From: an uncultured Spirochaetota bacterium
GTDB lineage: Bacteria > Spirochaetota > UBA4802 > UBA5550
Direction of reading: 5' to 3'
Length of the DNA stretch: 64,000 bases
Assembly: GCA_963827275.1 (NCBI GenBank)
Contig: CAWHAA010000008.1
Span: 384,001 to 448,000, forward strand
Shown: piece after piece, positions 1,507-64,000 of the stretch
Position numbering within the stretch: the first letter of the stretch is position 1
Layout: every line of letters begins with the position of its first letter
Notes under the pieces: model-generated
Seen by the model: the letters and a program-made list of their open reading frames with translations, nothing else
Told to the model about the DNA's origin: nothing
The model's database searches: none
Program-made: the position numbers and the translations under genes

Positions 1507-2325
1507 TTAAATTGAGCTCAGGAAGGTCCTTCCGGCATCGGTAACGGTTATGCTCACGGGCGCGAGCTCGGGACCGGTTGAATAACGGATCATGCCGAAA
1601 TGCCTGAGCCAGGTAAAGAAATAAAAGTCGATAAATGATATCGCCATAAGATCATTCCGCACGCTGAAGCCGGTCATATCGAAAAAATCATTCGCTATGT
1701 CATTCATCCTGACCGCGCCATAATGTCGGAGGGCCAGATCTTTCAAAACATGCCTGCTTGTTTTCAGGTCCCGCGCTGATTCGGGGTCCGATGGGAAAAT
1801 ATCTTCCCAGCTGGCAAGGTCCCAGAACGAGCTGAAGAGACGGTGAAACATGGCGCGGCTGGATAGTGCGGCACCCGCGACTGACGCGGCGGCGCCCTTT
1901 TTCCTGAGAATTCCGCCCACCGTCAGGAGGTTGAGGCATTGCTTGATATAGATGATGAGGAGCCCGTCATCGCCGATTTCATCCGCAAGGCCGGATTCAT
2001 GGGCCTTCTGCATACAGCGGGTGTAGAAGCTTTTTTTGAACCGCCCCTGCGCGGTAAGAGGGCATTTCCCGGAAGAAACGGCATCCACCAGCAAAAAGGC
2101 AAGACGCACGGCGAAGCAGCCATCCACGGCGACGGATGGCGGGTTCTCCTGCGCATTGTTCAGGTACCCGTAGTAGCTGTTGATGGTTTTGAGTATCTGC
2201 GCTGCGGCCCGGTTATCAGCGGGGACGTCTTCGCCCCGGAGACATTTTTTGATGCCTGCCGGTTGAATAGACGAATATTCATCAAGGATCTGAAGTTTTG
2301 ATTTATTATCGCGGTTAATAGTCAT
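1507..2325 (-). CDS. Hypothetical protein (possible winged-helix-like C-terminus)
   Basis: 272-aa ORF; WLRHFGMI...ITVTDAGRTFL C-terminal pattern. Confidence 0.6.
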   Translation of the reverse strand: MTINRDNKSKLQILDEYSSIQPAGIKKCLRGEDVPADNRAAAQILKTINSYYGYLNNAQENPPSVAVDGCFAVRLAFLLVDAVSSGKCPLTAQGRFKKSFYTRCMQKAHESGLADEIGDDGLLIIYIKQCLNLLTVGGILRKKGAAASVAGAALSSRAMFHRLFSSFWDLASWEDIFPSDPESARDLKTSRHVLKDLALRHYGAVRMNDIANDFFDMTGFSVRNDLMAISFIDFYFFTWLRHFGMIRYSTGPELAPVSITVTDAGRTFLSSI

Positions 2326-2617
2326 CGTTATGGTTAATTAATGTTAGTATATATCAAAGAACCGGCGGAAAATTACTGTCATTAATTGTTTTAACTTCTA
2401 ATTTAGTACTAAATTATTTTTTCATCTATCAATCTGATTGATCTCTTCTGAATAAACCAGAATACAAAAGGAGAGAAAATTTTTCTTTAATATAATGAAC
2501 ATCTAAATTAAAATTAATTTAAAGTCAAGATAAATCCACTTTTTTATAAAAAATTTTATTTTTTCATCACGATGCGTTTTTTGATGACGGGACGCATTGA
2601 ATTAATCATCAGGCTGA

Positions 2618-3193
2618 TCATCCAATCGTCGCCGAAATTTCTTTATGAAATTCTTTCATCTCCTCGGCGGTCATGGGTATGCTGACCGTGCCGCCGCCAG
2701 GATGCGGGAAGGAGAGTGCGTATCCGCCGCCCTCGCGGCTCACGGCGTATTTTTTTTTGCCCGGCATCTGTACGCCGGGGGCGAGCCAGTCGTCCGCGTT
2801 GAACTCGGCGATCTGGATCAGTACGCCGAACGCGTCACGGGGGTGGATGAAGAGCTCTTTCCAGAAATCGCCGTATTCATGATAGCCGAAGCAGGGGACC
2901 CCGCTGCGTTCGAGGAGCGCCGCCGCTTTTTTTATATCCGGCGTCTGCATGGTGATATGGTGCACGCCGCCCTCCTTTTTCTCAAGGAACCCATCAAGGA
3001 AGCTGCCGGCGCCGGTCGCGGTCAGGAGCTCGAGCCTGCTCAGGTCTCCCAGTGACAGGTTCTGCCAGATATATTTCATCCGGTCGTCCCTGCTGCTTGA
3101 ACCGGGGATGGCGCCGAGGAGTTCGGTAAAAAAGCGGTATGCCCGGTCATAGTCCCGTACGGCAATAGCGATGTGGTCGATGCGCTGGATCAT
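2618..3193 (-). CDS. VOC-family protein (methylmalonyl-CoA epimerase-like)
   Basis: IDHIAIAV, ELL, GVHHI, FIHPRDAFGVLIQ motifs; AAGGAG RBS favours ATG 3193. Confidence 0.85.
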   Translation of the reverse strand: MIQRIDHIAIAVRDYDRAYRFFTELLGAIPGSSSRDDRMKYIWQNLSLGDLSRLELLTATGAGSFLDGFLEKKEGGVHHITMQTPDIKKAAALLERSGVPCFGYHEYGDFWKELFIHPRDAFGVLIQIAEFNADDWLAPGVQMPGKKKYAVSREGGGYALSFPHPGGGTVSIPMTAEEMKEFHKEISATIG

Positions 3194-3332
3194 GTGCATG
3201 CTCCTTGTATAAATATCAGCATGGTATAGTCGAAAAATTCACGGATAGCAATAGTTTTTTAACATTTTCCCGATAAAAAATACTTGAATAATATATTATT
3301 TGTATCAATACGGATTGCTTGAGAGGTACGCT

Positions 3333-8567: not shown

Positions 8568-11255
8568 ATGAAACAGGGTTCCCCATCATCGCGCGGACCG
8601 GCGCCGGCGGTCGTCGTTTTTCTCCTTCTCGTCAGCGCGCCCTTTTTTGCCCGTGACGCGTATTCCATCGGCCTGTCCGCCGCGGGGGGGCCGGCACGGC
8701 CGGACACCGCGTCAGTCAAAGCACCCGCCCCGGCTGCCGTGCGTGATATCCCTGAGGATTATGATGACGATTACATCGGAAACTCCTGGTCTGCCGTCCT
8801 GACGGTAAGCAATAACGGCTCTGTCGAGGTGGTGGAGACATACGATGTCACCACGGCCCGCTGGCAGCGCGGAATCCGCCGTGCCATGGGCGGCCTGTAC
8901 AATACGTTGTTGATATACGACGTGTCCTGCACGCAGGGATATGCCGCCCATGCCTTCAGCGAAGCCGCCGGCCACCGGTTTACCTTCGGTTATTATGATG
9001 TAAAGGCGCCCGGCCGCCAGCTCTTTACCCTGAAGTATCACGCGGCCGGCATGGTCGTGCCCGCCGGCAAGGGGGCGCGCCTGCAATGGCGATGGAGCGC
9101 CGGCAAAAATAAAACGATACAGAGCGTTAAAGTGGTGCTCCCCCAGGGCGCCCCGCCCCTTAACGCCAGGGCGGTTGAAATTTCGGGACAGTCAGGATAC
9201 GTATGCCGTGAAAAAGAGCTGCAAACCGCGGTAGCGGCGAACACCATCACCATCCCGGTGAACCGCACCATCACGGACACGCTTGACCTCGCGGTGGACC
9301 TACCGGCCGGCATGATCGATATAAAGGCAATGCGGGAATATCTTGACCAGATCACTGATAAGAAACAGGTCCCATCGCTCCTGGAGTACTGGACCGCTGC
9401 GACGATACGCGACGACATGACCGTTGACCGCAGGGACATCTACCGGACCGCGCCGGATAACGCGATCAGGCGCATGACCATGCGGTACAACGGCCGTTTC
9501 GACACCGCCCTCCTGAACGAGGGGACCGGTCCCTGCACCTTGAAATTCGTGAAGAACCGTCTCTATCTTTTTGGGTTCGATAAAAGGGCGTGCGGCGACG
9601 GGGATTACACCGATGGCTCTGTCTGCATCCCGTTCGGGCAGGCGGGAGAGGACCGGGCGGACCTTCGGTATTCCATGTGGGGCAATTACAACCCGGGAAA
9701 CCGGTTGTTCTTTGACCTGCGTCTCCCCCCGGCGGATGCGAAGAGGACCGACCGCGTCCGCTTTCTGATCACCGTTCCCCCGTTCGTTCAAAAGGAGCAG
9801 GTGCGGGTCACCCTCTTTCTCGTCCGCGGCTTCACCGGGGGCGTGCAGCTCCGCGAGGCGTCATATACAGGCACCTGGAAGGGGGACACCCTCGTCGGCG
9901 AGTATTCCCCGAGCCTGTACGACGAGCAGTATCTTGTTGCCCGGGTATTTCTTCCCGCCGCGGGCTTCAGCGAGCCGGGAATTGTGAAGAAGATGGGGAT
10001 ATACCTCTCCTATTCGTGGTTCTTTTACCGGTCCCTGTTCCTCGCCGCGCTCGTTCTGATTGTGCTGCTGCTGGCAGGGGTCCCCGCGTTGATCTGGCTG
10101 CTTAAAATGAAGAAGACCTCGGTCCTGGCGGCCGCTGCGGTATCAGTGAAAACCACCGTCGATGAAAAGACCGTCAGCGCCGTGCGCGCTGAGGACCCCG
10201 CTTTTTCACCCGGGGCATTCCTCGACCGCGCCAGGATCATCGCCGGGAACATACAGGCGGCCTGGTCGAACGGCGACATGGCCCCGGTCCGCAACCTTGT
10301 TTCGCAGGGGGTCTTTAACCGGTTCAGGCTAAGGCTCAGGCTCATGCGCGAGCAGGAAAAGGTCGAAAACCTCCTGGGCGCGTTCACGGTCCGGAGCATC
10401 AGCCTGGTATCGTCCTCCGTTTCGCGCGACTACCGGACCCTCCATGTGCATGTCAACGCGAGCGCCCTGGACGTCGTGGTCCCGGTCGCCATGACGGCCG
10501 AAGAGAAAAAGCGCGCGCTCGAGCGGGCGAAGAAATCATATTTTACAGAGGTCTATTCATTCACCAGGAAACGCGGCGCTGTTACCGATGCGTCAAAGAG
10601 CCTCCTCGCGGCCCAGTGCCCCTCGTGCGGCGGCGCGGCAGGTTCCCCCGGCGGCTCGAACAGGTGCAACAGCTGCGGCGCGGTCTATAACTCGGGCGAG
10701 TTCGACTGGGTCCTCACCGGGATCGCGCAGGGCGGCGAGTGGAAGAGCGGCCCGTCGAGGGACGTACCGGGGCTTGCCGCAATGGAAACGGAGGGCCTGC
10801 GGATCGACCGCGGTGTGATAGAGGACCGCGCGGCATTTCTCTTCTGGCAATGGGTGGCGGGGCAGGCGGCCGGGAGCGCGGCGCCCCTTGCGCATGACGC
10901 CACGGACAGGGTCCTTAACGCCTTCAAGCCCGCAACGGGCTACTTCTCGGAGACCGCGGTCAGCTCTGTTGATGTCCAGGAGGTCTCCGTCGCCGGGAGC
11001 GGCGCGCGGGCGACCGTACGCGTCCTCTGGAGCGCCGCCCTGTCCCAGGGCAGGGTGCCCGAGCACCGCGAGCATAGATTGACGCTTCTCCTTCCCTCGC
11101 TGACGAACCCGCCGCGCGGCTTTGCTGACCACGGCTGCGGTTCCTGCGGCGCGCCGCTCCCTGAAAGCGACACGCGGACCTGCCCTTCATGCGGGAGCGC
11201 TCTCCAGTCGAAGAACAGCGACTGGCTGCTGGATGATATTTCTGAAAAGAAGTAG
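8568..11255 (+). CDS. Membrane protein: DUF2207-like ectodomain(s), TM helix, Tim44-like domain(s) with zinc ribbons
   Basis: Signal peptide; LTVSNNGSVEVVETY; DPAFSPGAFLDRA...IQAAWS; EVYSFTRK; CPSC..CNSC and CGSC..CPSC. Confidence 0.75.
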   Translation: MKQGSPSSRGPAPAVVVFLLLVSAPFFARDAYSIGLSAAGGPARPDTASVKAPAPAAVRDIPEDYDDDYIGNSWSAVLTVSNNGSVEVVETYDVTTARWQRGIRRAMGGLYNTLLIYDVSCTQGYAAHAFSEAAGHRFTFGYYDVKAPGRQLFTLKYHAAGMVVPAGKGARLQWRWSAGKNKTIQSVKVVLPQGAPPLNARAVEISGQSGYVCREKELQTAVAANTITIPVNRTITDTLDLAVDLPAGMIDIKAMREYLDQITDKKQVPSLLEYWTAATIRDDMTVDRRDIYRTAPDNAIRRMTMRYNGRFDTALLNEGTGPCTLKFVKNRLYLFGFDKRACGDGDYTDGSVCIPFGQAGEDRADLRYSMWGNYNPGNRLFFDLRLPPADAKRTDRVRFLITVPPFVQKEQVRVTLFLVRGFTGGVQLREASYTGTWKGDTLVGEYSPSLYDEQYLVARVFLPAAGFSEPGIVKKMGIYLSYSWFFYRSLFLAALVLIVLLLAGVPALIWLLKMKKTSVLAAAAVSVKTTVDEKTVSAVRAEDPAFSPGAFLDRARIIAGNIQAAWSNGDMAPVRNLVSQGVFNRFRLRLRLMREQEKVENLLGAFTVRSISLVSSSVSRDYRTLHVHVNASALDVVVPVAMTAEEKKRALERAKKSYFTEVYSFTRKRGAVTDASKSLLAAQCPSCGGAAGSPGGSNRCNSCGAVYNSGEFDWVLTGIAQGGEWKSGPSRDVPGLAAMETEGLRIDRGVIEDRAAFLFWQWVAGQAAGSAAPLAHDATDRVLNAFKPATGYFSETAVSSVDVQEVSVAGSGARATVRVLWSAALSQGRVPEHREHRLTLLLPSLTNPPRGFADHGCGSCGAPLPESDTRTCPSCGSALQSKNSDWLLDDISEKK

Positions 11256-11282
11256 CTTCCGCGGGGGGTGTCCCGGCCCTTG

Positions 11283-12437
11283 TTACCCGATACCGTGCAG
11301 GGGGAACACGTTGCGCTTCAGATAGGCGACCGTGTCCTGTGCGAACTCAAGGCACCGTTCTTTCAGGTGCCCCGTTACCACGTAGGGAGCGTCGCGCAAC
11401 GAGCCGGAGAGCGTCTCGGGACCGTACATCATGCCGCCGATGAGGCCGGCGTAGGCGTCGGATGGCTCCAGTCCGCAGAGCGCGGCCCAGGCCAGGGTCC
11501 AGAGCGCGGCGGTCTTGTACACGTTGTATCCGCCGCCCCCGGCCATCAGGATTTTCGGCGAGAGGCCCACGATGGACCTGACCGCCCGCTCATACCCGAT
11601 GCTGGTGAGGTTCAGGTGGCCCAGCAGGTCCTCCCGGTGCGAGTCTCCTCCGACCAGGGCGACCGTGATGTCCGGTTTGAACGCATTGATGAGCGGCGGC
11701 ACCACCGAATCGAACGCGAGGTGAAAGACCTCGTCGTCGCTTCCTTCCATGAGTGGTATATTGACCGTATACCCGCGACCCGCTCCTTCGCCGATGTCCT
11801 CGACAAAGCCGGCCCAGGGGTAGATGGTCATGCCTGATTCGTGGATGGAGATGCAGAGCACGTCGTCGCGCGCTGCGAACGCGTCGCGCACGCCGTTGCC
11901 GAAGTGGACATCGATGTCGATATAGGCGACCCGTTTGCCCCGGCGCGCCAGCTCCGTGATGGCGATTGCCAGGTCGTTCACATAGCAGAAGCCCTCGGCG
12001 TGGTCCGCGCCGGCGTGGTGGAACCCGCCCAGGGGATTGAACACGGCCCGGGCCTCGCCGTCGGCCAGCATCACCGCGCCCCGGTACGTGCCGCCTGATG
12101 CGCCGATGGTGTATTCCCACAGGCCCGGGAACACCGGGCAGTCCTCGGTGCCGAGGCCGGCCTCGAGCATCTGCATGGTAAAGCCGCCGCGCTCCGAATC
12201 TTTCAGGAGGTTGATGTATTTTTTTTCATGGAACGAATAGAGCGCCTCATCGGGAAGGACCGGCGGCTCCATGACAAGCTGGTTTTTTTCATAGAGGAGG
12301 GAATAGCGCGAGAGGAGGTCCATCATCTGTTTCGCCCTCGCCGGCTTGAAGGGGTGCCCGGGGCCGAAATCGATGCCCGCGAGACGGTCTGAATAGACGA
12401 GTACGTTCCGTGCGCCGTTGTCGGTTGATTCAGACAT
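11283..12437 (-). CDS. acuC: Histone-deacetylase family protein (AcuC-like)
   Basis: HPFKP, GGFHHA, GFCYVND, DIDVH, GGGGY motifs. Confidence 0.88.
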   Translation of the reverse strand: MSESTDNGARNVLVYSDRLAGIDFGPGHPFKPARAKQMMDLLSRYSLLYEKNQLVMEPPVLPDEALYSFHEKKYINLLKDSERGGFTMQMLEAGLGTEDCPVFPGLWEYTIGASGGTYRGAVMLADGEARAVFNPLGGFHHAGADHAEGFCYVNDLAIAITELARRGKRVAYIDIDVHFGNGVRDAFAARDDVLCISIHESGMTIYPWAGFVEDIGEGAGRGYTVNIPLMEGSDDEVFHLAFDSVVPPLINAFKPDITVALVGGDSHREDLLGHLNLTSIGYERAVRSIVGLSPKILMAGGGGYNVYKTAALWTLAWAALCGLEPSDAYAGLIGGMMYGPETLSGSLRDAPYVVTGHLKERCLEFAQDTVAYLKRNVFPLHGIG

Positions 12438-12513
12438 GATCCGTCACCGGGGACATGGTCGTGCAGGGCGGGATAAAAATCAAATACAAATTATGGCCGC
12501 GCCGCACCGGCGG

Positions 12514-14154
12514 CTACGGGGCCTTCTCCGCCGTTATGACAGGCTCAACTGAGGTAAGATCATACCGCGCTCGCGCGGTCGCATCGAACTCCACCATGTC
12601 CCACGAACGCCGGTCCTGCCCCGTGACCTCGAGAAACCGCTCGAAGCCGAGCCACCGGTAATACGACACGGTCATGGCGTCCTCCCGAAGCTCAACATCG
12701 GTGAAGCCCCAGGAGAGCTCGCCGTACACATGGTACCGGCCGGCCGTATTTTCACGGTCCGCCGCGGCCGGCGCACCGGGCCCGTTGATCCACCCGGCCC
12801 AGCGGCGGGCGCGGCGGTCCATGATGTAGGAGTCGAGGTGCGAGCCTCCCGTGCCCGCCACCAGGTAGAGGGGGCCGGGGTCCGCCCGGAAGAGGTCGAA
12901 GTTGTGGTCGTGGCCGGAGATCACCAGGTCGACGCCGCGGGAGCGGAATAAATCGAAGTACTGGGCCGCGAGCAGCTCGCTGGTGCCGTAGTCGCCCGTG
13001 GAGAGGACGGGGATGTGCAGCACGACGATGAGCCACTTCACTGACGCGCTCCGCGCCAGCTCTTCCCGCGCCCACCGGTACTGCGCGCTCCCCGTTGTAA
13101 GCACCGGCCCGTCCAGCGTCCTCCCGGGCCCGTCGAAGGGATGGAGGACGATGAGGCGCGCGTCGCCGTAATCGACAGAATGGTAATCCGGCTGCCCGAA
13201 GAAATAACGGAAATTGCTCCCGCCGTCCGAAAGGTATTCGTGGTTTCCCGGCGCGTACAGGCCGGGGACGGCATCGGCGCGGCCGTCGGCGGAAAAATAT
13301 TCGCGCCATCCGTCCAGGTCGTCCCCGGTGCGGACCATGTCGCCGGCGTGGACCCTGAAGTCCGGGACCGTGCGCATGGCATCGTAGCGCGCGTGCGCGG
13401 CGCGCGTCACCTCGGTGAAGTAGGAACGGGCCGAGCCGCCCCGCCTCGTGTTGCCGGAATCGGCAAGGGCCATGAAGCGGACGGTTGTGCCGCTGCCGCG
13501 CGGCGGCGCGGTGCGGAAGGAGCGGACCCTCCCGTCCAGCGCCGGCACCAGGTAGTAGTAGCGCGTTGAGGGCGCAAGGCCGGTCAGGTGGAATTCATGC
13601 CGCCTGCCGTCGCCCGCCGCCTCGGTGATCTTCGTCATGCGCTCCGGCTGGGGCACGGCGCCGAAAAGGATTTCGGCCGGCGCCATGCCGGCGGGATCAA
13701 AATACCAGACCACGGCGCCGGTCGACGCGTCTGCGCGCCGGTCACGGAAGGGGCCGAACTGGAGCACCGGGCCGATACGTTCCCTGAACCGCTCCGGCGC
13801 GGACGGTTCGCCGGCCGCGGAGCGCGACCACCGGTCCCTGAAAAATGTGATCGCCAGAATGCAGAAGAGGACCGTTATCGCGGGGGTAAGGATTGTTATA
13901 ACCGGCGGCGTCCAGGGATGCAGCCCCCTGAGCGCCCGGTATGCCGCGATGACTGCCCGGGCGCATAATAGGCCGGCCAGTAGCAGCGGTACGCCGATAA
14001 GAATCACGGGATAATCATAGTATGACGTTTTGAAAAATATGTCGATTATTTCGATCCCGGTCGCACTGATGCCGAATATGAGGATTGAAATGACCGCGGC
14101 GGCGGCGGCAAGGGGGATACAGGCAGGCAGAAAAGCCCGGGCTGCTTTTATCAT
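12514..14154 (-). CDS. Membrane-anchored purple-acid-phosphatase-like metallophosphoesterase
   Basis: N-terminal TM helices; LTGLAPSTRYYY FN3-like; ADSG, AGD, GNHE, SGHDH motifs; start uncertain. Confidence 0.85.
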   Translation of the reverse strand: MIKAARAFLPACIPLAAAAAVISILIFGISATGIEIIDIFFKTSYYDYPVILIGVPLLLAGLLCARAVIAAYRALRGLHPWTPPVITILTPAITVLFCILAITFFRDRWSRSAAGEPSAPERFRERIGPVLQFGPFRDRRADASTGAVVWYFDPAGMAPAEILFGAVPQPERMTKITEAAGDGRRHEFHLTGLAPSTRYYYLVPALDGRVRSFRTAPPRGSGTTVRFMALADSGNTRRGGSARSYFTEVTRAAHARYDAMRTVPDFRVHAGDMVRTGDDLDGWREYFSADGRADAVPGLYAPGNHEYLSDGGSNFRYFFGQPDYHSVDYGDARLIVLHPFDGPGRTLDGPVLTTGSAQYRWAREELARSASVKWLIVVLHIPVLSTGDYGTSELLAAQYFDLFRSRGVDLVISGHDHNFDLFRADPGPLYLVAGTGGSHLDSYIMDRRARRWAGWINGPGAPAAADRENTAGRYHVYGELSWGFTDVELREDAMTVSYYRWLGFERFLEVTGQDRRSWDMVEFDATARARYDLTSVEPVITAEKAP

Positions 14155-55002: not shown

Positions 55003-56237
55003 ACTCGGAACGTCCCCTCACCATATGCCTCCTCTGCTACCGGGGGAACCCCTACTCGGGCGGCCAGGGGATCTACCTCAAGTACATAGCCGACGAGATG
55101 GTGCGCCAGGGCCACGAGGTCCACGCGATCGTGGGGCCGCCCTATCCCTTTCCCATGAAGGGCGTCACGCTGCACAAAATCCACAACAACCAGTATTTCG
55201 TCCGGAAAAAGTTCGACATCATCGAGCGTGGCGATCCGTTCGGCATATTCAGGCCGCTCAATTTCTACGAGTACCTTGCCAGCCGCACCGGCGCCTTTTC
55301 GGAGATCAGCACCTTCGGGTGGCGCGCCTATATGCTGCTCCGCGAGCTCCACGCGCGGCACGGCTTCGACGTGATACACGACAACCAGTCGGTCGGCTAC
55401 GGCCTCCTGATGATGAAGGCCTTCGGCGTGCCGGTGGTGGCCACCATCCACCATCCCCTCTCGATCGACCTCGTCAACGTGCTCGAGCGGACGCAGAAGT
55501 TCAAAAACAAGCTCAAGACCGCGATGTTCTACCCCACGATGATGCAGTCCATCGTGTCGAAGCGGCTTGACCACATCATCACCGTGTCCGAGGACTCGAA
55601 GAGAATGATCAACCGCGACTTCGGCGTGCCGATGGAGAAGCAGACGGTGGTGTACAACGGCATTGACCGGAGCGTGTTCAGGCCGCTGACCGGCGTGAAG
55701 AAAAAAACAGGAAAGATCATCTTCGTCGGCAACGTGGAGGACGGCAAGAAGGGCTTTGTCTATTTATTGAAGGCGATGCCGCTCATAGACCGCCGGGTCA
55801 GGCTCACCGTGGTGGACGGCGGCGCGCCGCACCACAAGGTGACCGACCGGCTGATGGCCTCGCTCGGCCTGGAGGGCCGTGTCGAGTTCACCGGCAAAAT
55901 GACGACCGGGGATCTGGTGCGGCACTACGGCGAGTCGGAGATCGCGATCGTGCCGTCCGTGTACGAAGGGTTCGGGCTCCCGGCCGCGGAGGCGATGTCG
56001 TGCGGCGTGCCGGTCGTGTCGAGCGACGGCGGCGCGCTCCCGGAGGTGGTGGGCGGCGCCGGCATCGTGGCACCCGCACGCGACCACGAGGCGATCGCGA
56101 AGGCGGTGAACACCCTTTTCGCCGACCGCGCCCTCATGAAGGAGATGGGGCAGGCCGGCATCGAGCGGGTGAAGGAGCACTTCAACTGGGAAAAGGCGGT
56201 GCGGGAGATAGTCGCGGTGTACCGGCGGTTTATCTGA
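54999..56237 (+). CDS. Glycosyltransferase family 4
   Basis: SGGQG, EGFGLPAAEAMSCGVPVV; ATGA overlap with the acyltransferase. Confidence 0.92.
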   Translation: MNSERPLTICLLCYRGNPYSGGQGIYLKYIADEMVRQGHEVHAIVGPPYPFPMKGVTLHKIHNNQYFVRKKFDIIERGDPFGIFRPLNFYEYLASRTGAFSEISTFGWRAYMLLRELHARHGFDVIHDNQSVGYGLLMMKAFGVPVVATIHHPLSIDLVNVLERTQKFKNKLKTAMFYPTMMQSIVSKRLDHIITVSEDSKRMINRDFGVPMEKQTVVYNGIDRSVFRPLTGVKKKTGKIIFVGNVEDGKKGFVYLLKAMPLIDRRVRLTVVDGGAPHHKVTDRLMASLGLEGRVEFTGKMTTGDLVRHYGESEIAIVPSVYEGFGLPAAEAMSCGVPVVSSDGGALPEVVGGAGIVAPARDHEAIAKAVNTLFADRALMKEMGQAGIERVKEHFNWEKAVREIVAVYRRFI

Positions 56238-56676
56238 GAGATCCCGGCATGGATTCGACATAGGCCTTTATCTCGTCCCGCACGCGGCGATAGTGGACCA
56301 TTGCCTCCTCCTCCGATGCCGCGTGTTTCGCCAGCTCCGGCGGATCGTCGAACCCGCGGTGAATGAATTTTGCGTTGCCGCGGAAAAAGGGGCAGGTTTC
56401 CGACTCGCCGCCGCACAGCGTGACGACGTAATCCAGTCTCATACCGCCGAATTCATCATCATGCTTCGATCGCTGTCCCGATATATCGATCCCGATTTCG
56501 GCCATGGCCCTGACGGCCAGCGGGTCGAGGCCCGCCGGCCTGCTGCCGGCAGAATACGCCTCGATGATATCGCCCTTCAGGGACCGGGCCAGCCCTTCGG
56601 CCATCTGGCTGCGGCAGGAATTCCCGGTGCAGAGGAAGAGTATTTTCAGCTTTTTATCAGTCATGTGAAGAATCAT
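56230..56676 (-). CDS. arsC: Arsenate reductase (LMW-PTP type)
   Basis: [24 protein letters not shown]. Confidence 0.93.
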
Positions 56677-57719
56677 CCACCGAAATAGTTCTTTTTAAAA
56701 TACAGCGCCACGTTCACCAGGCCGATCATGACGGGCACCTCGACCAGCGGGCCGATGACCGCGGCGAAGGCGGCGCCGGAATTGATGCCGAAGACCGCCA
56801 CTGCCACGGCGATGGCAAGCTCAAAGTTGTTGCTCGCGGCGGTGAATGAAAGGGTCGTCGCAACCGGGTACCCGGCGCCTATCTTTTTACTCATGTAGAA
56901 GCTTACCAGGAACATCACGACAAAATAGATGAGCAGCGGAATGGCGATCCGCACGACATCGAGCGGGATCTTTACGATGTACTCGCCCTTCAGGCTGAAC
57001 ATGACCAGGATTGTAAATAAAAGCGCGATGAGCGTGATGGGACTGATTTTCGGGATGAATTTTGTCTGGTACCATTCCTTGTTTTTCAGCTTGATGAGCG
57101 CGAACCGGGTTATGATGCCGGCAATGAAGGGTATGCCCAGGTAGATAAAAACGCTCTTTGCGATCTGCCCTATGGTGATGTCCACAACGCTGCCCGTGAG
57201 CCCGAAGAGCGGCGGCAGCACGGTGATGAAAAACCACGCATACACGCTGAAGAACAGCACCTGGAAGATGCTGTTGAAGGCTACGAGACCGGCCGCGTAT
57301 TCAGTGTCGCCCTTGGCAAGGTCATTCCACACGATCACCATGGCGATGCAGCGCGCCAGACCTATCATGATGAGGCCCACCATGTATTCGGGATAACCGC
57401 TCAGGAAGGTGATGGCGAGAAAAAACATGAGCACCGGCCCGACAAGCCAGTTCTGAATAAGGGAAAGCCCGAGCACCTTCCAGTTTTTAAACACGTCGCC
57501 GAGTTCTTCATATTTAACTTTCGCCAGCGGCGGGTACATCATGAGGATAAGGCCGATCGCGATCGGTATGTTCGTGGTTCCGGACTGGAACTGGTTCCAG
57601 AAGGCGGCTGTTTCCGGAATGAAGTATCCCAGGGCCACGCCGATTGCCATGGCGGCGAAGATCCAGATAGTGAGAAAGCGGTCGATGAATGATAATTTAC
57701 TTGTTATTCCTTCGCTCAT
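56673..57719 (-). CDS. acr3: ACR3-family arsenite efflux transporter
   Basis: [38 protein letters not shown]. Confidence 0.95.
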
Positions 57720-57733
57720 TGCTTTTCTCCATG

Positions 57734-58432
57734 CTATGTAAGTTGTATCCCGAAAATATAGACCATGCAAAAATATATTCCCACGAGTATAAAGAGAGCG
57801 CCGGTGCCGCGGCGCGCCCACAATTCCATTCGCGACACCATGTTGAAAGCATTCGACAGGTAGTTGGCCCCGAAGGCCAGGATGAGCCCGAAGACCAGTA
57901 TCGGAAGCGCGGTGCCCGCGCCGTAGAGCAGGGGAAGGAGGAGAGGGGAGGCGTTGCGCACCGCGAGCGGGAGGAGGCTGCCGAAAAAGAGCGCGGCCGA
58001 CACCGGGCAGAACGCCAGGGCAAAGACGACCCCCATGATAAAGGAAGCGGCAAAAATATTTTTTTCAGCCAGCCGTCCGAGTCTTGATGAGTCGGTCCCC
58101 CTGCCGGCAGGGAGCCGCAGCAGGCCGAGGAGGAACATCCCGGCAATGATGAGGACCGGACCGAGGATCCTGTTCATGTAGCGCTGTAAAAAATTTGACA
58201 CGGAGGGGATAGAGAGCAGGCTTGTTACAAGAAGGGCGGCAAGGGCCGCATAGGCCGCCATCCTTCCCAGGAGATAGAGCAGCGAGCTGATGACGGCGGT
58301 CCGTTTTTTTGCGGCGTTTTTGCCGATGTACGACACCGCCGCGATGTTCGTCGCCAGCGGGCAGGGGCTGACGGACGTCAGAACGCCGAGCCACAGGGCG
58401 GCGATAATTCCGGTGGTCAATTCTCCGCTCAT
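57734..58432 (-). CDS. arsG: ArsG-family permease (CcdA/DsbD-like)
   Basis: [28 protein letters not shown]. Confidence 0.8.
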
Positions 58433-58935
58433 ATCTGTTTTAAAAATCCGGCAATTTCATTTTTTATATAAGCGGTGAAAGACGGTTCGTCCCGGACCAG
58501 CTCCCATATCCTGTCCAGGTTTTTCCACCGGACCCGCGTGCCTTTTTCCGTATCGACGATAACAACCGACTTGGTAAAAAGCCTGAAGTCATCCACGAAA
58601 TGCCTGTTTTCGAGAAGCTCAATATTGACGGGGCTCCATGTTATCCTTTTTGAGGCAAGTTCCGCGGAAAAATTATCCCGAACTGCTGATGCGGTCAGGG
58701 CCTCTATTTTACGGCAGGTCGGGCACCGTGCGGTCGTGTGAAAATAATAGACCGTCAGGGCGCGCTCCTGTGCCGGGACGCCGGTGTCCGGCGTGGATTG
58801 GCCCGATGCCGGCGACACGCCCGCTGCGGCCGTTTCGTTCTTTGCGGAATTCCGCACCTCGGTTGCGACCAGGTAGATGGCGCTTGCCGCAACGAAAATC
58901 GATAATACTATGGTGGTGATTCTTCTTGCTTTCAT
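58429..58935 (-). CDS. arsF: ArsF-family exported CxxC protein
   Basis: N-terminal anchor; VYYFHTTARCPTC; WKNLDRIW. Confidence 0.78.
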   Translation of the reverse strand: MKARRITTIVLSIFVAASAIYLVATEVRNSAKNETAAAGVSPASGQSTPDTGVPAQERALTVYYFHTTARCPTCRKIEALTASAVRDNFSAELASKRITWSPVNIELLENRHFVDDFRLFTKSVVIVDTEKGTRVRWKNLDRIWELVRDEPSFTAYIKNEIAGFLKQI

Positions 58936-58965
58936 CAGAATATCCTTATTAATATGTTCTGCGCA

Positions 58966-59373
58966 TCAACAGGTCCCGGCGCACGGACCGCCCGCCTGCC
59001 CCGCGCCGGGAGACGGCTCTTCCATATGCACGATACGGTCACATAGTGAATTGACGATCTCATCTGTCGGCGTCGTCTTTCCCTTTTCAATGCCGAAATC
59101 GGTCAGGACATACGATGCCGGCGATACCCCTATGCGCTCCAGTGTCTTTTTCGCGCACATGGTCCCGCACCCGTCTATAGTGATGTTGAGTTCCGCCCCG
59201 CGCGCGGATTCAACGAATCCTGACAGGTCAGCACCGATACCCGCGAGGCAGGTCATGCGCGCGAAGCCCGCGTCGCGGAGCTTGCGCGACACCCGGTCCG
59301 CGATCTGGCCCACGTCGGCAGAGCCCGAGCATGAGTATAGCAGTTTTACGCCGCCGGAGCAACAATCAGCCAT
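58966..59373 (-). CDS. DGC-domain putative zinc-binding protein
   Basis: SCSG, MTCLAG, IDGC...CAKK. Confidence 0.85.
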   Translation of the reverse strand: MADCCSGGVKLLYSCSGSADVGQIADRVSRKLRDAGFARMTCLAGIGADLSGFVESARGAELNITIDGCGTMCAKKTLERIGVSPASYVLTDFGIEKGKTTPTDEIVNSLCDRIVHMEEPSPGAGQAGGPCAGTC

Positions 59374-59384
59374 GCTGCGACCTC

Positions 59385-59615
59385 CTATGATATAAGTTTT
59401 TTTATCTCTTCAAGGGAGGGTATCTTTCCCGCCACCTTGACCACGCCATCCTTGACCAGCGCCGGTGTGATCATGACGCCATAGTTGGTAATAGCGGTAA
59501 TGTCTTTGACATGATTGATCTGTGCGTCCACGCCCATCTCATCCACGGCCTGGCGCGTCAGCTCTTCAAGCTTCTGGCATTTGGCGCAGCCGCTGCCCAG
59601 TATCTCAAGTAACAT
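59385..59615 (-). CDS. Small thioredoxin-like redox-active disulfide protein (MTH895/ArsE-like)
   Basis: ILGSGCAKC, YGVMITPALV. Confidence 0.88.
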   Translation of the reverse strand: MLLEILGSGCAKCQKLEELTRQAVDEMGVDAQINHVKDITAITNYGVMITPALVKDGVVKVAGKIPSLEEIKKLIS

Positions 59616-59637
59616 GGGGTATCTCCTTTGTGTATAT

Positions 59638-60936
59638 TTAAAATAAAGAGCCGAAAATCATCCCTGACAGTGTCGCCATGATAACAACCAGTACCACGTA
59701 TACAGCGGTCTTTTGCCACCCGATAACGCTTTTAATGACCAGCATGCTCGGGAGCGAAAGTGCTGGACCGGCCAGCAAAAGCGCAAGCGCAGGGCCCTTG
59801 CCCATGCCGCTCCCGATAAGGCCCTGCACGATGGGCACCTCGGTGAGAGTGGCGAAGTACATGAATGCGCCGGATATTGCCGCGAAAAAATTAGCCCACA
59901 GGGAGTTGCCACCCACAGCCCAGGCGACCCATTCGTTTGGAATTACACCCTCTTTGCCAACGCGTCCAAGCAGAAAGCCCGCGATAAGCACACCGAAGAG
60001 AAGGAGGGGCAATATCTGCTTGGCGAAATCCCACGTCGAGACGAACCATCCTCCGGTTTCTCCTTTATCGGTGCTGGTGATGACCGAAAGGCCGATAGCG
60101 CCAGCGGAGAAAGCGAGGATGGGTTGTGACGGGATCGCGATCGAAAGAGCGACAACCGGCACGGCGGCCAGAAGCACCTTCCACCACTTCAACTCGAACC
60201 ACACGACCAGCACGACGGCGAAGAGTGCCGCTGATGCGCCGGTGATGATCCATTTGAGATTATATATTTCATACCAGAATCCGCTGGTTTCAACCGGCTT
60301 TCCCCAGTTGGCGAATACCAGGATTGCGATCATTGAAGCGAAGTAGATGATATTTTTCCAGAGCGCCCGCTTCACCTCCGGCTCCGGCATGTTCATGGCG
60401 GCCCTGGCTTTTTCAACTTCTTCCTTTCGATAAATAAAGTGCATGGCAAGGCCGATAACAACGCTGAAAACTACCGCCCCGACAGCACGCGCGATTCCTA
60501 TTTCAATTCCCAGGATCCTTGCCGTAAGTACTATGGCTAAAACGTTAATGGCTGGACCTGAATAGAGAAAGGCCGTGGCCGGCCCGAGTCCCGCTCCCAT
60601 CCGGTAGATACCGGAGAAGAGGGGGAGGACCGTACAGGAACAGACCGCGAGAATAGTTCCGGAAACGGACGACACGCCGTACGCAATGGCTTTGTTCGCC
60701 GTTGGGCCAAGGTATTTCATGACCGACTCCTGGCTTACAAAGACGGCAATAGCTCCGGCGATGAAAAAGGCCGGCACCAGGCAGAGGAGGACGTGCTCCT
60801 GCGCGTACCACTTGACAAGGTAGAGCGCCTCGAATACGGCGTTATCGAAGCGGGGGACCCCCACCGGCAGGTAAAACAGAAGCAAAAATGTTCCCGCTAT
60901 CCACAGCAATGGTTTCCATTCAGTCTTCCAGATCAT
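59638..60936 (-). CDS. arsP: ArsP/DUF318 permease
   Basis: LAVCSCTVLP, FLYSGPAIN, MYFATLTEVPI, LLLAGPALSLP. Confidence 0.85.
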   Translation of the reverse strand: MIWKTEWKPLLWIAGTFLLLFYLPVGVPRFDNAVFEALYLVKWYAQEHVLLCLVPAFFIAGAIAVFVSQESVMKYLGPTANKAIAYGVSSVSGTILAVCSCTVLPLFSGIYRMGAGLGPATAFLYSGPAINVLAIVLTARILGIEIGIARAVGAVVFSVVIGLAMHFIYRKEEVEKARAAMNMPEPEVKRALWKNIIYFASMIAILVFANWGKPVETSGFWYEIYNLKWIITGASAALFAVVLVVWFELKWWKVLLAAVPVVALSIAIPSQPILAFSAGAIGLSVITSTDKGETGGWFVSTWDFAKQILPLLLFGVLIAGFLLGRVGKEGVIPNEWVAWAVGGNSLWANFFAAISGAFMYFATLTEVPIVQGLIGSGMGKGPALALLLAGPALSLPSMLVIKSVIGWQKTAVYVVLVVIMATLSGMIFGSLF

Positions 60937-60972
60937 TGTCACTGTCTCCACTGTGTCATTATTGATGAAGTG

Positions 60973-61326
60973 CTAACGGCCGGCTGTCGATATTTTTATC
61001 CCGCAGCACTGCGCTATGTTCATCTGCTTTTCCACGTTCGTTTTCAGGACTGTCTCGATGCAGCCGATGAAGTCGAGCACGCAGGGACAGCAGAGCGTAT
61101 AGTAGATGCTGGTGCCGCGCTTTTCGTCGAGGACCAGGCCGACGTTTTTCAGCACGCTCAGGTGCTTGGACACGGTGGAGACGTCCGAGCCGATCATGTC
61201 GGTGAGCTCGTTCACGCACCGTTCCGCCTTGTGCAGCTCCTCGATGATGAAGAGACGCGTGGGGTGTCCCATTGCCTTGAGTATGTTCGCCCTGGCCTCG
61301 TATTGCGGGTGCAGTTTCTGTTCCAT
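60973..61326 (-). CDS. arsR: ArsR/SmtB-family repressor
   Basis: KAMGHPTRL, STVSKHLSVLKNVGLV wHTH; Cys-rich C-terminus. Confidence 0.93.
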   Translation of the reverse strand: MEQKLHPQYEARANILKAMGHPTRLFIIEELHKAERCVNELTDMIGSDVSTVSKHLSVLKNVGLVLDEKRGTSIYYTLCCPCVLDFIGCIETVLKTNVEKQMNIAQCCGIKISTAGR

Positions 61327-61339
61327 TGTTCGCGCTCCT

Positions 61340-61642
61340 TCAGCAGCAACTGGTTGATTGCCCGCCGGCCGGGCCGCCGCAGTCGCAGGACGGCTCGCTA
61401 CCGGTCAGCATGCCCTTGATGATCGCCGCGGCGCAGCCCACGCCCGAGCCGACCGTGAGCGCGCCGAACTCGCAGTTCAGGGCGCAGGCGCCGCATTCCA
61501 TGCAGAGGTCTTTGTCGGTGATATGCGCTTTCCCCTCCCGCATCTCGAATACCGCGTGCGGGCACACCTCGGTGCAGCGGCGGCACCCGGTGCATTTTTC
61601 CCGGTCGTACGCGAGCGTGGCCACGTTTTTCAGATATTTCAT
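61340..61642 (-). CDS. hgcB: Mercury methylation ferredoxin HgcB
   Basis: CTGCRRCTEVCPH, CMECGACALNC, GVGCAAA, terminal CC; ATGA overlap with hgcA. Confidence 0.95.
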   Translation of the reverse strand: MKYLKNVATLAYDREKCTGCRRCTEVCPHAVFEMREGKAHITDKDLCMECGACALNCEFGALTVGSGVGCAAAIIKGMLTGSEPSCDCGGPAGGQSTSCC

Positions 61643-62832
61643 ATGAGCCCCCATGATTCCAGTTTATAGAGTATGACGAGGACTATCGTTGTCGCCAGCC
61701 CGGCGATGTATATCGGCAGCCAGAGCTTCAGCTCTTTTTTGACCCCGCTTATGGTGGTGAAGGTGGTCGCGCCGGTGAACTGGAGCGCCAGGTACGAGGA
61801 GAGGAGCGGGAAGAGAACCAGCGCTGCCGTTTTTAACAACAGGGAGTTCCCGCCGAGCGGTGTCGCGAGCACCAGGGGTGCGACTGCGGCGGCCCCGGCA
61901 ACGAGCCCCTTCACCGCAAATGAACGGAACGGGATGAAGGGGAGGAGCGCCGGCGTGACAAAGGCACCCGCCAGGACGCCTGTCATGCAGAGGAGAATAA
62001 CGGGCCAGCCCTCTGACCAGGCGCTGTTCCATAAAATGCCTTCAGGCTGTATCCCGAATATCACGAGGATGATCAGCGCCGCGAGGGGAAATTTCCTGAA
62101 GGCCTGGTTCAGCTCGATCGGGACAAGGACCAGGCGGTCACCCAGGGTGAACCGGATCGTCCTCATCGCAGGAGTGGCGCTGCATCCCGCCCTGATATAT
62201 TCCGGGATGTCGTTCGCGTCCACGGGCCCGAAGCGCACGCTGAAACCGGTCTTCTTTTTAACCTCCGCGGCATTGACCCCGGTGGCGCCGAGCTGGGGCA
62301 CGATGAGGCGCCGGTGCCCGACCAGCTGTGCCAGGTTCAGCCCGAGAACGCGCTTCACGAGCTCCCCGGTGCCGAAGGTGCCTTTGCCGGCAGCGCACCA
62401 GACGTTGATCCCCTTCGTATCGAGGACCAGTATCCAGCCGTTCATGCCCGCGAGCGAGCGGCGGAGCATATCAAATGAAAGCTTGTAGTTTGCCGACACG
62501 AAAATATCGGACCCCGCGTCCGGTGCGCCCACCGCGTACAGCCCGGGCCGTACCGCATAGTGCTCCCTGAATGCGCTGATGCGGGAGCGGAACCGGCCCC
62601 ATCGGTCGGATCTGGTCCACCCTGCTGCGACGACCGGCACCAGCCCGGAAGATGTGTTCAGGACACCGGTAACCCAGGGCTCCTTGCCCTGGGTAATATC
62701 CGATAATGACTGGAGCGCCCGGAGGTTCACCCGGGGCCCGCGTGCCAGTACGCCCTGATTTTTTTGCCCGCCGCAGCAGGACTGTTGCGGCGTATTCTCT
62801 GCCGGTTTTGCATACATTTCTAGAGGTTTCAT
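61639..62832 (-). CDS. hgcA: Mercury methylation corrinoid protein HgcA
   Basis: Cap helix NVWCAAGK (62383-62406); PGLYAVG, SANYKLSFD, PQLGATG; C-terminal TM domain with FTGATTFT. Confidence 0.97.
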   Translation of the reverse strand: MKPLEMYAKPAENTPQQSCCGGQKNQGVLARGPRVNLRALQSLSDITQGKEPWVTGVLNTSSGLVPVVAAGWTRSDRWGRFRSRISAFREHYAVRPGLYAVGAPDAGSDIFVSANYKLSFDMLRRSLAGMNGWILVLDTKGINVWCAAGKGTFGTGELVKRVLGLNLAQLVGHRRLIVPQLGATGVNAAEVKKKTGFSVRFGPVDANDIPEYIRAGCSATPAMRTIRFTLGDRLVLVPIELNQAFRKFPLAALIILVIFGIQPEGILWNSAWSEGWPVILLCMTGVLAGAFVTPALLPFIPFRSFAVKGLVAGAAAVAPLVLATPLGGNSLLLKTAALVLFPLLSSYLALQFTGATTFTTISGVKKELKLWLPIYIAGLATTIVLVILYKLESWGLI

Positions 62833-62856
62833 ACTACTACACTTTAATCATTGTAT

Positions 62857-62892
62857 ATTTGGCAATATAGCCAATTAACCAATGAATGTCAA
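62857..62892 (-). promoter_or_regulatory. sigma70 promoter of the hgc-ars operon with overlapping ArsR-type operator
   Basis: TTGACA(62892-87)-N17-TATATT(62869-64); inverted repeat TTGGC(62859-63)-N6-GCCAA(62870-74) brackets the -10 box. Confidence 0.75.
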
Positions 62893-63055
62893 GAATCATT
62901 TTTCCCAGCAAGAAAATTTTAAAGCAAGGATTACCGGTTATTGTAACATCGTCAGGTGCGGATTGATGGACATGGAATACGCCTGCGCTGAAGAGGGTAT
63001 GCCGCATGGCGTGCGCACTATGCCGGCACGGCGCATCATCCCGGCATCCGGCCTG

Positions 63056-64000
63056 TCATGCGGGGGACTCTCCTTCAGATTTCTGATACCGGTCTGCTTC
63101 CTGTCCGCCCCTGTTGTCCCGCCGGTACCGCTCGGGCGTGGTCCCCATGTAGCGGGGAAACAGGCGGTTGAAGGTCCGGATGCTGTCGAACCCGACCGAT
63201 GACGCGATGGTCATGACGCTCTCTTCATCGCGCACCAGTTTGTCCGCGGCTTCACGCATGCGGAGCTCGTTTATGTAATCACCCAGTTTTTTGCCGGTGT
63301 ATTTTTTAAAAAGACGGCTCAGGCTGTCGGGATGCACCTCAGCCTGGCCGGCAAGAAATGAACGGGAGAGATGAGCCGTATAGTTGTCGTTGATGTAGTC
63401 AGCCACCTGTAAAATTCTCGTGCGCGGATTGGCCGCTCCCTGGTCGGCGCCGCCCCGTCTCTTCCGCGCGGCCGCGACCATCTTCAGTTTTTCACCGAGC
63501 AGGGCGTTCTCTATGACGAAGCTCTCAAGGCTGTTGTTGAGGTCTTCCACCTCGTCCATCATCCGTATGAACCGGATGGTAAGCACCAGCGCGCTGCCGA
63601 TGAAAAACACGGCGGCCGCGTAGGGGAATATCATGTACTGGAAAGCGATACCCCAGCGGGCCATGTCATTGCCGGTCAGCTTGAGGAAGAATATGCCCCC
63701 GTCATGGAGGGCCCCCATGATGGCGATGATGCCGAAAAAGCTGAAGATTTTCGCGTAGGGGTGTTTTTTTATCAGGGCGGATACGTGGCAGGAGATGTTG
63801 TACATGCCCACGAGACAGGCAAGGGCGGTCAGCACGGAACCGGAGTTCCGTACGATTCCGCCCCGTGTCTCTTCGGTGATGAAAAAAAAGATGAACAGGG
63901 CCACCACTGCGAGATAGGTCCAGAGCGCCACCTCGATTTTTTTTCTGGCCAGCCCGTAAACGCGGTGCAGGAAAATGGGGTGCACGGCCGTGATCGCGAC
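63056..64000 (-). CDS. Membrane-anchored AraC-family regulator, C-terminal part (runs off window end)
   Basis: TM helices, coiled coil, HPDSLSRLFKKYTG...VGFDSIRTFNRLF...TPERYR. Confidence 0.88.
   Translation of the reverse strand, partial: VAITAVHPIFLHRVYGLARKKIEVALWTYLAVVALFIFFFITEETRGGIVRNSGSVLTALACLVGMYNISCHVSALIKKHPYAKIFSFFGIIAIMGALHDGGIFFLKLTGNDMARWGIAFQYMIFPYAAAVFFIGSALVLTIRFIRMMDEVEDLNNSLESFVIENALLGEKLKMVAAARKRRGGADQGAANPRTRILQVADYINDNYTAHLSRSFLAGQAEVHPDSLSRLFKKYTGKKLGDYINELRMREAADKLVRDEESVMTIASSVGFDSIRTFNRLFPRYMGTTPERYRRDNRGGQEADRYQKSEGESPA

Follow-up and report, generated by a model that had tools for sequence, protein, structure and literature searches.

The window analysed here is a 64,000-nucleotide stretch of an uncultured Spirochaetota bacterium (GenBank assembly GCA_963827275.1, contig CAWHAA010000008.1, positions 384,001 to 448,000). 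It carries ten open reading frames (ORFs), all on the minus strand and running from 62832 down to 56230, in which the mercury-methylation genes hgcA and hgcB head a series of arsenic (ars) genes. The intergenic gaps are -4, 13, 36, 22, 11, 30, -4, 14 and -4 base pairs (bp). An initial annotation, made from the sequence alone, gave the same ten genes in this order on one strand with the same nine gaps, and the ORFs bear this out exactly. A palindrome on the promoter before hgcA is the predicted operator of the ArsR repressor encoded downstream of hgcB; this placement suggests that hgcAB entered an ArsR-controlled operon at its head. The features are listed below, with lengths in amino acids (aa) and scores against the cut-offs of hidden Markov models (HMMs).

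62887..62892, minus strand: -35 hexamer TTGACA of a predicted sigma-70-type promoter
62857..62876, no strand: palindromic core, 20 bp, over the -10 box; predicted operator of the downstream ArsR
62864..62869, minus strand: -10 hexamer TATATT, at the palindrome centre
61639..62832, minus strand: hgcA, 397 aa; NF040863 394, cut-off 275
61340..61642, minus strand: hgcB, 2[4Fe-4S] ferredoxin, 100 aa; NF040864 128, cut-off 99
60973..61326, minus strand: ArsR/SmtB repressor, 117 aa; NF033788 80.5, cut-off 55
59638..60936, minus strand: putative ArsP-family permease, 432 aa; PF03773 ArsP_1 224, cut-off 32
59385..59615, minus strand: MTH895/ArsE-type small thioredoxin, 76 aa; TIGR00412 101.8, cut-off 62
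58966..59373, minus strand: DGC-domain protein, 135 aa; PF08859 93.6, cut-off 27
58429..58935, minus strand: ArsF-family protein, 168 aa; NF040494 112.7, cut-off 60
57734..58432, minus strand: ArsG-family (CcdA/DsbD-like) membrane protein, 232 aa; NF040495 269, cut-off 200; PF13386
56673..57719, minus strand: Acr3 arsenite efflux permease, 348 aa; TIGR00832 457, cut-off 283
56230..56676, minus strand: ArsC-like low-molecular-weight reductase, 148 aa; TIGR02691 127, below the cut-off of 174

The cobalt-binding cysteine of HgcA proteins sits in an N(V/I)WCA(A/G)GK motif. Here this reads NVWCAAGK (residues 143-150) in the corrinoid domain; the protein also has Cys19-Cys20 near its N-terminus, five predicted membrane helices (hydropathy peaks, 250-388) and a start conserved as MKP or MKS in most relatives. 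It is set apart from HgcAB-like fusions (NF043039 186, cut-off 285). The hgcB gene lies directly behind, with the 4-bp overlap; its product has CxxCxxCxxxC motifs at 17 and 47 (the second ending in CE, not CP), Cys70, near the HgcB cysteine expected at about position 73, and a C-terminal Cys99-Cys100. Published hallmarks of HgcA are five C-terminal membrane helices and an N-terminal CC or CU motif, and the HgcA and HgcB features named there match those found here (PMC11588087, 10.1101/2022.07.06.499078); Cys93 of HgcA is essential (PMC11588087).

The remaining genes resemble known ars operons. A review names ArsE/ArsF/ArsG, ArsP, Acr3 and ArsC among organoarsenical or arsenite determinants (PMC9144182). 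The cluster matches the family models for ArsE-type, ArsF, ArsG and Acr3 proteins, and its ten genes include no arsM, arsH, arsA or arsD. Eight of the labels in the initial annotation are backed by scores above curated HMM cut-offs; two are weaker. The arsP label depends on Pfam ArsP_1, as both NCBIfam matches fall below cut-off, and the ArsC-like protein carries the CX5R motif (CTGNSCR) together with Cys88 and Cys95 at a sub-threshold score. By tblastn, nine of the ten genes are single copy in the genome, with only weak ferredoxin and ArsR-family matches elsewhere. The exception is arsC, which has one 39% identical paralogue (G000:C5:542068-542493) between a PhoH-like and a PstC-like gene, both labelled by eye.

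The predicted operator before hgcA

Repressors of the ArsR family bind palindromes that overlap their own promoters. The palindromic core before hgcA is part of an imperfect dyad spanning 62848-62885 (15 of 19 pairs). Alignment of the regions upstream of hgcA reveals a conserved -35 box, and a palindrome whose centre is the -10 box, in the window and in all 16 related loci with this gene order. The palindrome is missing from L116, a same-genus locus without a downstream arsR (L numbers denote the loci compared). ArArsR binds a palindrome in the same relation to its promoter (PMC11868830).

The motif is also found before paralogous arsR genes that lack hgcAB in front (L139, 37.6 bits; L052, 31.1; L121, 25.7; L136, 22.4; L062, 21.7; L117, 20.5). 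Members of this ArsR subfamily occur in 53 of 61 related genomes. The analysis covered 50 of the 57 listed places; a predicted operator was called at 15 bits or more with p < 0.01 against shuffles. Where hgcB does not stand in front, an operator lies 19-58 bp before arsR in 30 of 32 loci. Where it does, none of the 18 loci has an operator before arsR.

So that the test would not be circular, a palindromic motif was derived afresh, using only the upstream regions of the 32 stand-alone arsR genes. Its best match in the 4.13-Mb genome is 62857-62876 (28.3 bits), while the runner-up (21.8 bits) lies inside an ORF. The motif scores 19.5-31.3 bits before hgcA in all 16 loci with a downstream arsR and at most 7.5 bits in 91 other hgcA loci. 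When metagenomes were searched with nothing but the promoter-palindrome pattern, at least 119 stretches matched; among the 119 listed, the first gene behind the pattern is arsR-like in 91, arsE-like in 10, hgcA in four, arsP in one and another gene in 12, and one stretch was too short.

Within the window's genome no convincing further regulon member was found, the second-best site being the one inside an ORF, and no internal operator above 9 bits occurs in the cluster. Some operons elsewhere carry the operator also before arsP (L139 near 11327; L136 near 1733; L056 near 6418); the window has a single site.

The NF033788 match and the co-occurrence of an operator-like palindrome on the operon promoter place ArsR among the repressors of its family, and it very likely binds the palindrome before hgcA. 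Bound there, it would be expected to repress the transcript that starts at hgcA; on binding trivalent arsenic it would release the promoter and hgcAB would be switched on. We put the probability of the proposal as a whole (hgcAB behind an ArsR operator, one repressed transcript, release by arsenic) at about 0.6.

Conservation, origin and purpose of the arrangement

A match to hgcA is present in all 16 same-genus genomes searched (frameshifted in one). In 15 of these the order is hgcA-hgcB-arsR, with ArsR proteins 78-92% identical; L116 alone departs from it, with a different type of arsR upstream of hgcA. One locus from another family of the same order, L141, shares the arrangement, and 18 other loci examined at family or order level do not.

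The genes behind arsR are not fixed, and the complete operon described in the initial annotation is better read as a conserved core, operator-hgcA-hgcB-arsR, with variable cargo. In the 15 same-genus loci, two of which are cut by contig ends (L114, L115), acr3 follows in 10 and arsC in eight; acr3 is also present in L141 and L176. A 100% arsC match in L187 does not enter the analysis. L119 and L112 have all ten genes in the same order, as does L118, though with two of them broken. Cargo is inserted in L111 and L126, and L122 runs straight to acr3. In L117 and L121, arsR is followed by Crp, FmdE and TauE genes and then by a second arsR operon.

Several further features of these loci were noted. 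Frameshifts affect the DGC gene and acr3 (L118), arsP (L124, L126) and hgcA (L126), through assembly error or decay. A second, apparently decayed hgcA-hgcB-arsR set with a fragmented hgcA and a broken arsR (L194, G007:C75:23700-27000) lies in a genome that also has an intact copy. A radical SAM/SPASM gene closes the operon in L111, L120, L122, L125 and L126 and is the sole gene after arsR in L120; the L111 protein (2104-3204, minus strand, 367 aa) scores below the TIGR04317 cut-off. In L141, a MacB/LolCDE-type ABC transporter and a LolA-like protein follow acr3 (11149-13868).

A quick tree was built from 106 distinct HgcA rows, after exclusion of frameshifted, short and duplicate ones. It groups the 16 rows that have a downstream arsR in a single clade (SH-aLRT 99) and places L116 outside it. 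The arrangement would thus have arisen once and been retained; the loci are not independent recruitments. Because the palindrome stands before either hgcA or arsR, hgcAB were most likely inserted once, in the ancestor of the genus, between the operator-promoter and arsR, and were then kept. The ancestral operon would have been operator-arsR-arsP-arsE-DGC. Entry behind the operator-promoter of such an autoregulated operon would place hgcAB under the ArsR repressor.

No independent second origin of the operator-hgcA arrangement was found. The four metagenome cases resemble the same clade (L293 is judged from a 99-residue fragment whose best matches are clade members). In 23 further hgcA loci of the phylum, no site lies directly before hgcA; the best scores, 28.8 (L336) and 17.8 bits (L334), are about 1.2 kb upstream, near acr3.

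Linkage of hgcAB to ars genes is already known. ArsR genes beside hgcAB, some with ars genes, have been reported in Deltaproteobacteria, Nitrospira, Spirochaetes, Ignavibacteriae and Bacteroidetes (10.1101/2022.10.17.512643), and hgcAB flanked by acr3, arsC and arsR have been published, Spirochaetes included (PMC7438021, 10.1101/2022.10.17.512643). Neighbourhoods with acr3, arsC, arsM or arsR are described for metagenome-assembled genomes (PMC7438021; 10.1101/2020.02.03.933291; PMC11984097), and arsR and arsB downstream of hgcB are reported once (Gionfriddo et al. 2020, 10.1101/2020.02.03.933291). One study among these three found that, in a lake, the presence of arsR coincided with lower hgcA expression. 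In their accessible text, the reports on assembled genomes (McDaniel et al. 2020; Gionfriddo et al. 2020; Peterson et al. 2025) give co-location only: none of them mentions an operator, an insertion between such a site and arsR, or conservation across a genus. No description of the operator or the insertion was found in the literature searched, which lay mostly outside subscription journals and motif collections of the RegPrecise type (background also from PMC10349881 and PMC12953829). The operator and the head-of-operon insertion appear to be new.

What hgcAB do at this position is a separate matter. They may simply have hitch-hiked behind a convenient, leaky autoregulated promoter, in which case their regulation would follow arsenic although HgcAB have no part in arsenic handling; this concerns purpose only, is compatible with ArsR control, and is a serious possibility at somewhat less than even odds. 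It fits a single insertion event, an operator that is absent from 91 other hgcA loci, and the case of L116, whose HgcA is of another lineage and whose genome has an arsR operon that retains its own operator. It also fits the finding that Pseudodesulfovibrio mercurii ND132 made no detectable methylarsenicals (10.1101/2022.10.17.512643). Against it, hgcAB remain at the head in 15 of 16 same-genus genomes although the cargo behind arsR is freely rearranged. Moreover, hgcAB occur among ars genes in other phyla (see also PMC7438021): among the 80 closest HgcA loci, 18 have acr3 or arsC matches in their available flanks (Spirochaetota, Nitrospirota, Bacteroidota). Deletion of hgcAB in ND132 also raises sensitivity to As(V), though not to As(III) (10.1101/2022.10.17.512643).

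The inducing signal and methylmercury

The cysteines of ArsR are at positions 37, 79, 80, 82, 89, 107 and 108. In the 50 loci from relatives, Cys82 is conserved in 49, Cys89 and Cys108 in 47 each and Cys37 in 41; Cys37 and Cys82 are each kept in 119 of the best 120 database homologues. ArsR shares with R773 ArsR, AfArsR, CgArsR, SpArsR and ArArsR the ArsR/SmtB family, several conserved cysteines and a palindrome overlapping the promoter. The type 1 repressor R773 has a Cys32-x-Cys34-xx-Cys37 triad in its DNA-binding domain (PMC11868830), of which only Cys37 is found here, in RCVNEL. AfArsR has a C-terminal Cys-Cys with a third cysteine six residues on, and CgArsR has an N-terminal Cys-Cys (PMC11868830); for these types 2 and 3, the protein here has Cys107-Cys108 without a later cysteine and no N-terminal pair. 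The C-terminal pair is common to AfArsR and SpArsR. Set beside SpArsR, with its C-terminal pair alone, and ArArsR, with a helix-3 cysteine and two beta-wing cysteines (PMC11868830), Cys37, Cys79/80/82 and Cys107/108 lie in comparable regions as these are described, and the repressor may be of one of these types, which sense MAs(III) or As(III). No characterised close homologue was found among solved structures, all of which are distant (best E about 1e-10), or among the best 25 of 1524 plasmid records (about 36% identity); the best 120 database matches are only automatically named.

The closest studied parallel is ND132, where arsR2-hgcA-hgcB likewise links hgcAB to an ArsR-family repressor gene. 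There, arsR2 lies upstream of hgcA, encodes a four-cysteine site (Cys47, 49, 86, 88) and, as described, has no adjoining ars genes; the account consulted defines no operator. In contrast, the arsR in the window lies downstream of hgcB, belongs to another subfamily with different cysteines and heads arsP-arsE-DGC; an arsR directly upstream with a CxC...CxC pattern is absent. The order arsR-arsP-arsE-DGC equals that of a separate ND132 operon, operon C (arsR5-arsP-arsE-DGC). Arsenic raises the arsR2, hgcA and hgcB transcripts of ND132 and induces operon C (Gionfriddo et al., 10.1101/2022.10.17.512643).

Some relatives have a different ArsR directly upstream of hgcA (L116, L127, L128, L132, L133, L134, L142, L145). 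That protein carries a CxC motif both in helix 3 and at the wing, and by description resembles the patterns of ND132 ArsR2 and ArArsR; two ArsR subfamilies would thus be tied to hgcAB within one order.

Because the cargo includes acr3 and arsC and the like-ordered ND132 operon is induced by arsenic, As(III) or methyl-As(III), sensed through the conserved cysteines, is the favoured signal and a reasonably probable one. Several observations weigh against arsenic-released ArsR control of hgcAB. ArsR has none of the As(III) triads of types 1, 2 and 3 (PMC11868830), and Cys37 is replaced by Ser or Thr in nine of the 50 relatives. The likeness to operon C is one of gene order, and operon C responds also to adenosine dialdehyde (10.1101/2022.10.17.512643). 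L117, L120 and L121 show no acr3 or arsC within 10 kb downstream. The cargo is rich in thiol-redox machinery, and some loci have a TauE, rhodanese, VKOR/DsbA or coenzyme A-disulfide reductase-like gene. Finally, all instances derive from one event, so the 16 loci reflect retention and not repeated recruitment.

The same circuit could instead answer to another thiol-reactive cue, such as reactive sulfur, antimony, a soft metal, organomercury or methyl-cycle stress, with acr3 and arsC as optional cargo. The non-canonical cysteine set points this way, as do the usual cargo of the subfamily (arsP and small thioredoxins), the sulfur or redox genes that follow arsR in L117, L121, L122 and L124, and the response of both arsR2 and arsR5 of ND132 to adenosine dialdehyde. 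This explanation is nevertheless unlikely in view of the acr3 and arsC genes in 10 and eight of the 15 same-genus loci, the acr3 of L141 and L176, the arsenic induction of operon C and the finding that ND132 hgcA is not induced by Hg (10.1101/2022.10.17.512643).

Even if arsenic is the inducer, it does not follow that arsenic directly induces mercury methylation, as the initial annotation had it. In ND132, washed cells treated with As(V) were the only case in which a rise in hgcA transcripts was matched by more methylation. Less methylmercury was formed in As(III)-treated washed cells and in As(V) cultures, while As(III) cultures formed more without a rise by quantitative PCR (10.1101/2022.10.17.512643). 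Since the transcript rise in ND132 came mostly without a rise in methylmercury, induction of methylmercury would be unsupported even if the regulation holds.

It is also conceivable, though quite unlikely, that the native job of HgcAB is arsenic chemistry: they would methylate, demethylate or reduce arsenic species exported by ArsP or Acr3, and methylmercury would be a side product formed once arsenic opens the operon. The ArsR regulon would then recruit vitamin B12-dependent methyl-transfer proteins, HgcAB here and an MtrA-like corrinoid protein elsewhere. This MtrA-like gene is the main reason for keeping the idea open. Its product has about 226 aa (L111:3669-4346, minus strand; NF002126 188, cut-off 161), and it lies within the operon in L111, L113, L125 and L126 and in the hgcAB/ars loci L031 and L033. 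In four metagenome loci (L211, L217, L231, L260) it comes second behind the same operator, which is followed directly by the gene for a small CxC protein of about 85 aa. It was not found in the window's genome.

Published links of hgcAB to arsenic come from co-location and from a single organism, in which the regulator gene lacks adjoining ars genes. Since a 20-bp site, a 117-residue repressor and a promoter are defined, repression of hgcA and the inducer can be tested in an Escherichia coli reporter without culturing the host. If arsenic is the inducer, the genus would express its methylation genes according to arsenic exposure; this would bear on forecasts of methylmercury at co-contaminated sites, provided that output is limited by transcription, a condition on which the ND132 data cast doubt. 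For other genomes, the motif provides a DNA-level test that tells genuine ArsR control of hgcAB apart from simple proximity.

Transcript layout, assembly and host

The predicted sigma-70-type promoter, TTGACA-17-TATATT (62892..62864), scores 11/12. Of three promoter-like sites on the minus strand in 55800-63300, only this one exceeds 9/12, and TTGAC or TTGAT stands at the equivalent position in the 16 related loci. The promoter-proximal place given to hgcAB in the initial annotation is thus borne out, with the sole strong predicted promoter before hgcA and the predicted operator of the downstream ArsR on it. The predicted hgcA leader (62833-62857, about 25 bases) is short and, in contrast to most of the genes behind it, lacks a clear Shine-Dalgarno sequence; translation of HgcA could therefore stay low.

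That no terminator is apparent needs qualification: a scan lists nine minus-strand hairpins in the cluster, all of them inside coding sequence. Both strands of 55800-63300 together have 20 hairpins, where shuffles give 7.9 +/- 3.0; the T-rich codons of membrane proteins are the probable cause of the excess. The perfect stem of the arsG hairpin is not kept in the seven relatives compared. Likewise, the 13-bp gap leaves no room for a promoter between hgcB and arsR but does leave a promoter within hgcB possible; the scan found none. The genes from hgcA to arsR very probably form one transcript, which would probably run on to arsC. The arsC stop overlaps a convergent GT4 glycosyltransferase gene by 8 bp (56230-56237), which leaves no intergenic room for a terminator.

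Alternatively, there could be two transcription units, with hgcAB on their own promoter, the ars genes using a second one hidden in hgcB and the palindrome vestigial or bound by another regulator. The terminator-like hairpins inside hgcA and an AraC-type regulator gene upstream on the same strand would suit this. It is very unlikely, however: no operator stands before arsR where hgcB is in front (0 of 18 loci, against 30 of 32 stand-alone), the palindrome stays near consensus in all 16 loci although flanking DNA diverges, and upstream neighbours vary among genomes.

An assembly artefact that fused an hgcAB contig with an ars contig has practically no probability left: the assembly has 11 contigs at 92% completeness and 3.9% contamination, but the joints are crossed by contigs from other runs and 15 other genomes of the genus have the same hgcA-hgcB-arsR order, so the cluster is not a chimera. 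The bridging Logan contigs come from four DNA runs in four studies and cover 59246-63600 as a single piece, 60757-61624, 61265-62403, 57484-59122 and 55605-56702; no single listed piece covers the entire cluster, and the best-matching run may be the source sample.

A spirochaete host, as initially proposed, is borne out as far as tested. Its GlyS beta subunit shares 78% identity with the one from a Spirochaetota-labelled genome, and 62% and 58% with those from two other spirochaete-labelled genomes; a fourth match reaches 34%, and a fifth genome has no match. No RNA run is among the 24 listed runs with matching DNA, which has no bearing on expression. Near-identical DNA of the genus is present in sediment, manure, freshwater and bioreactor runs.

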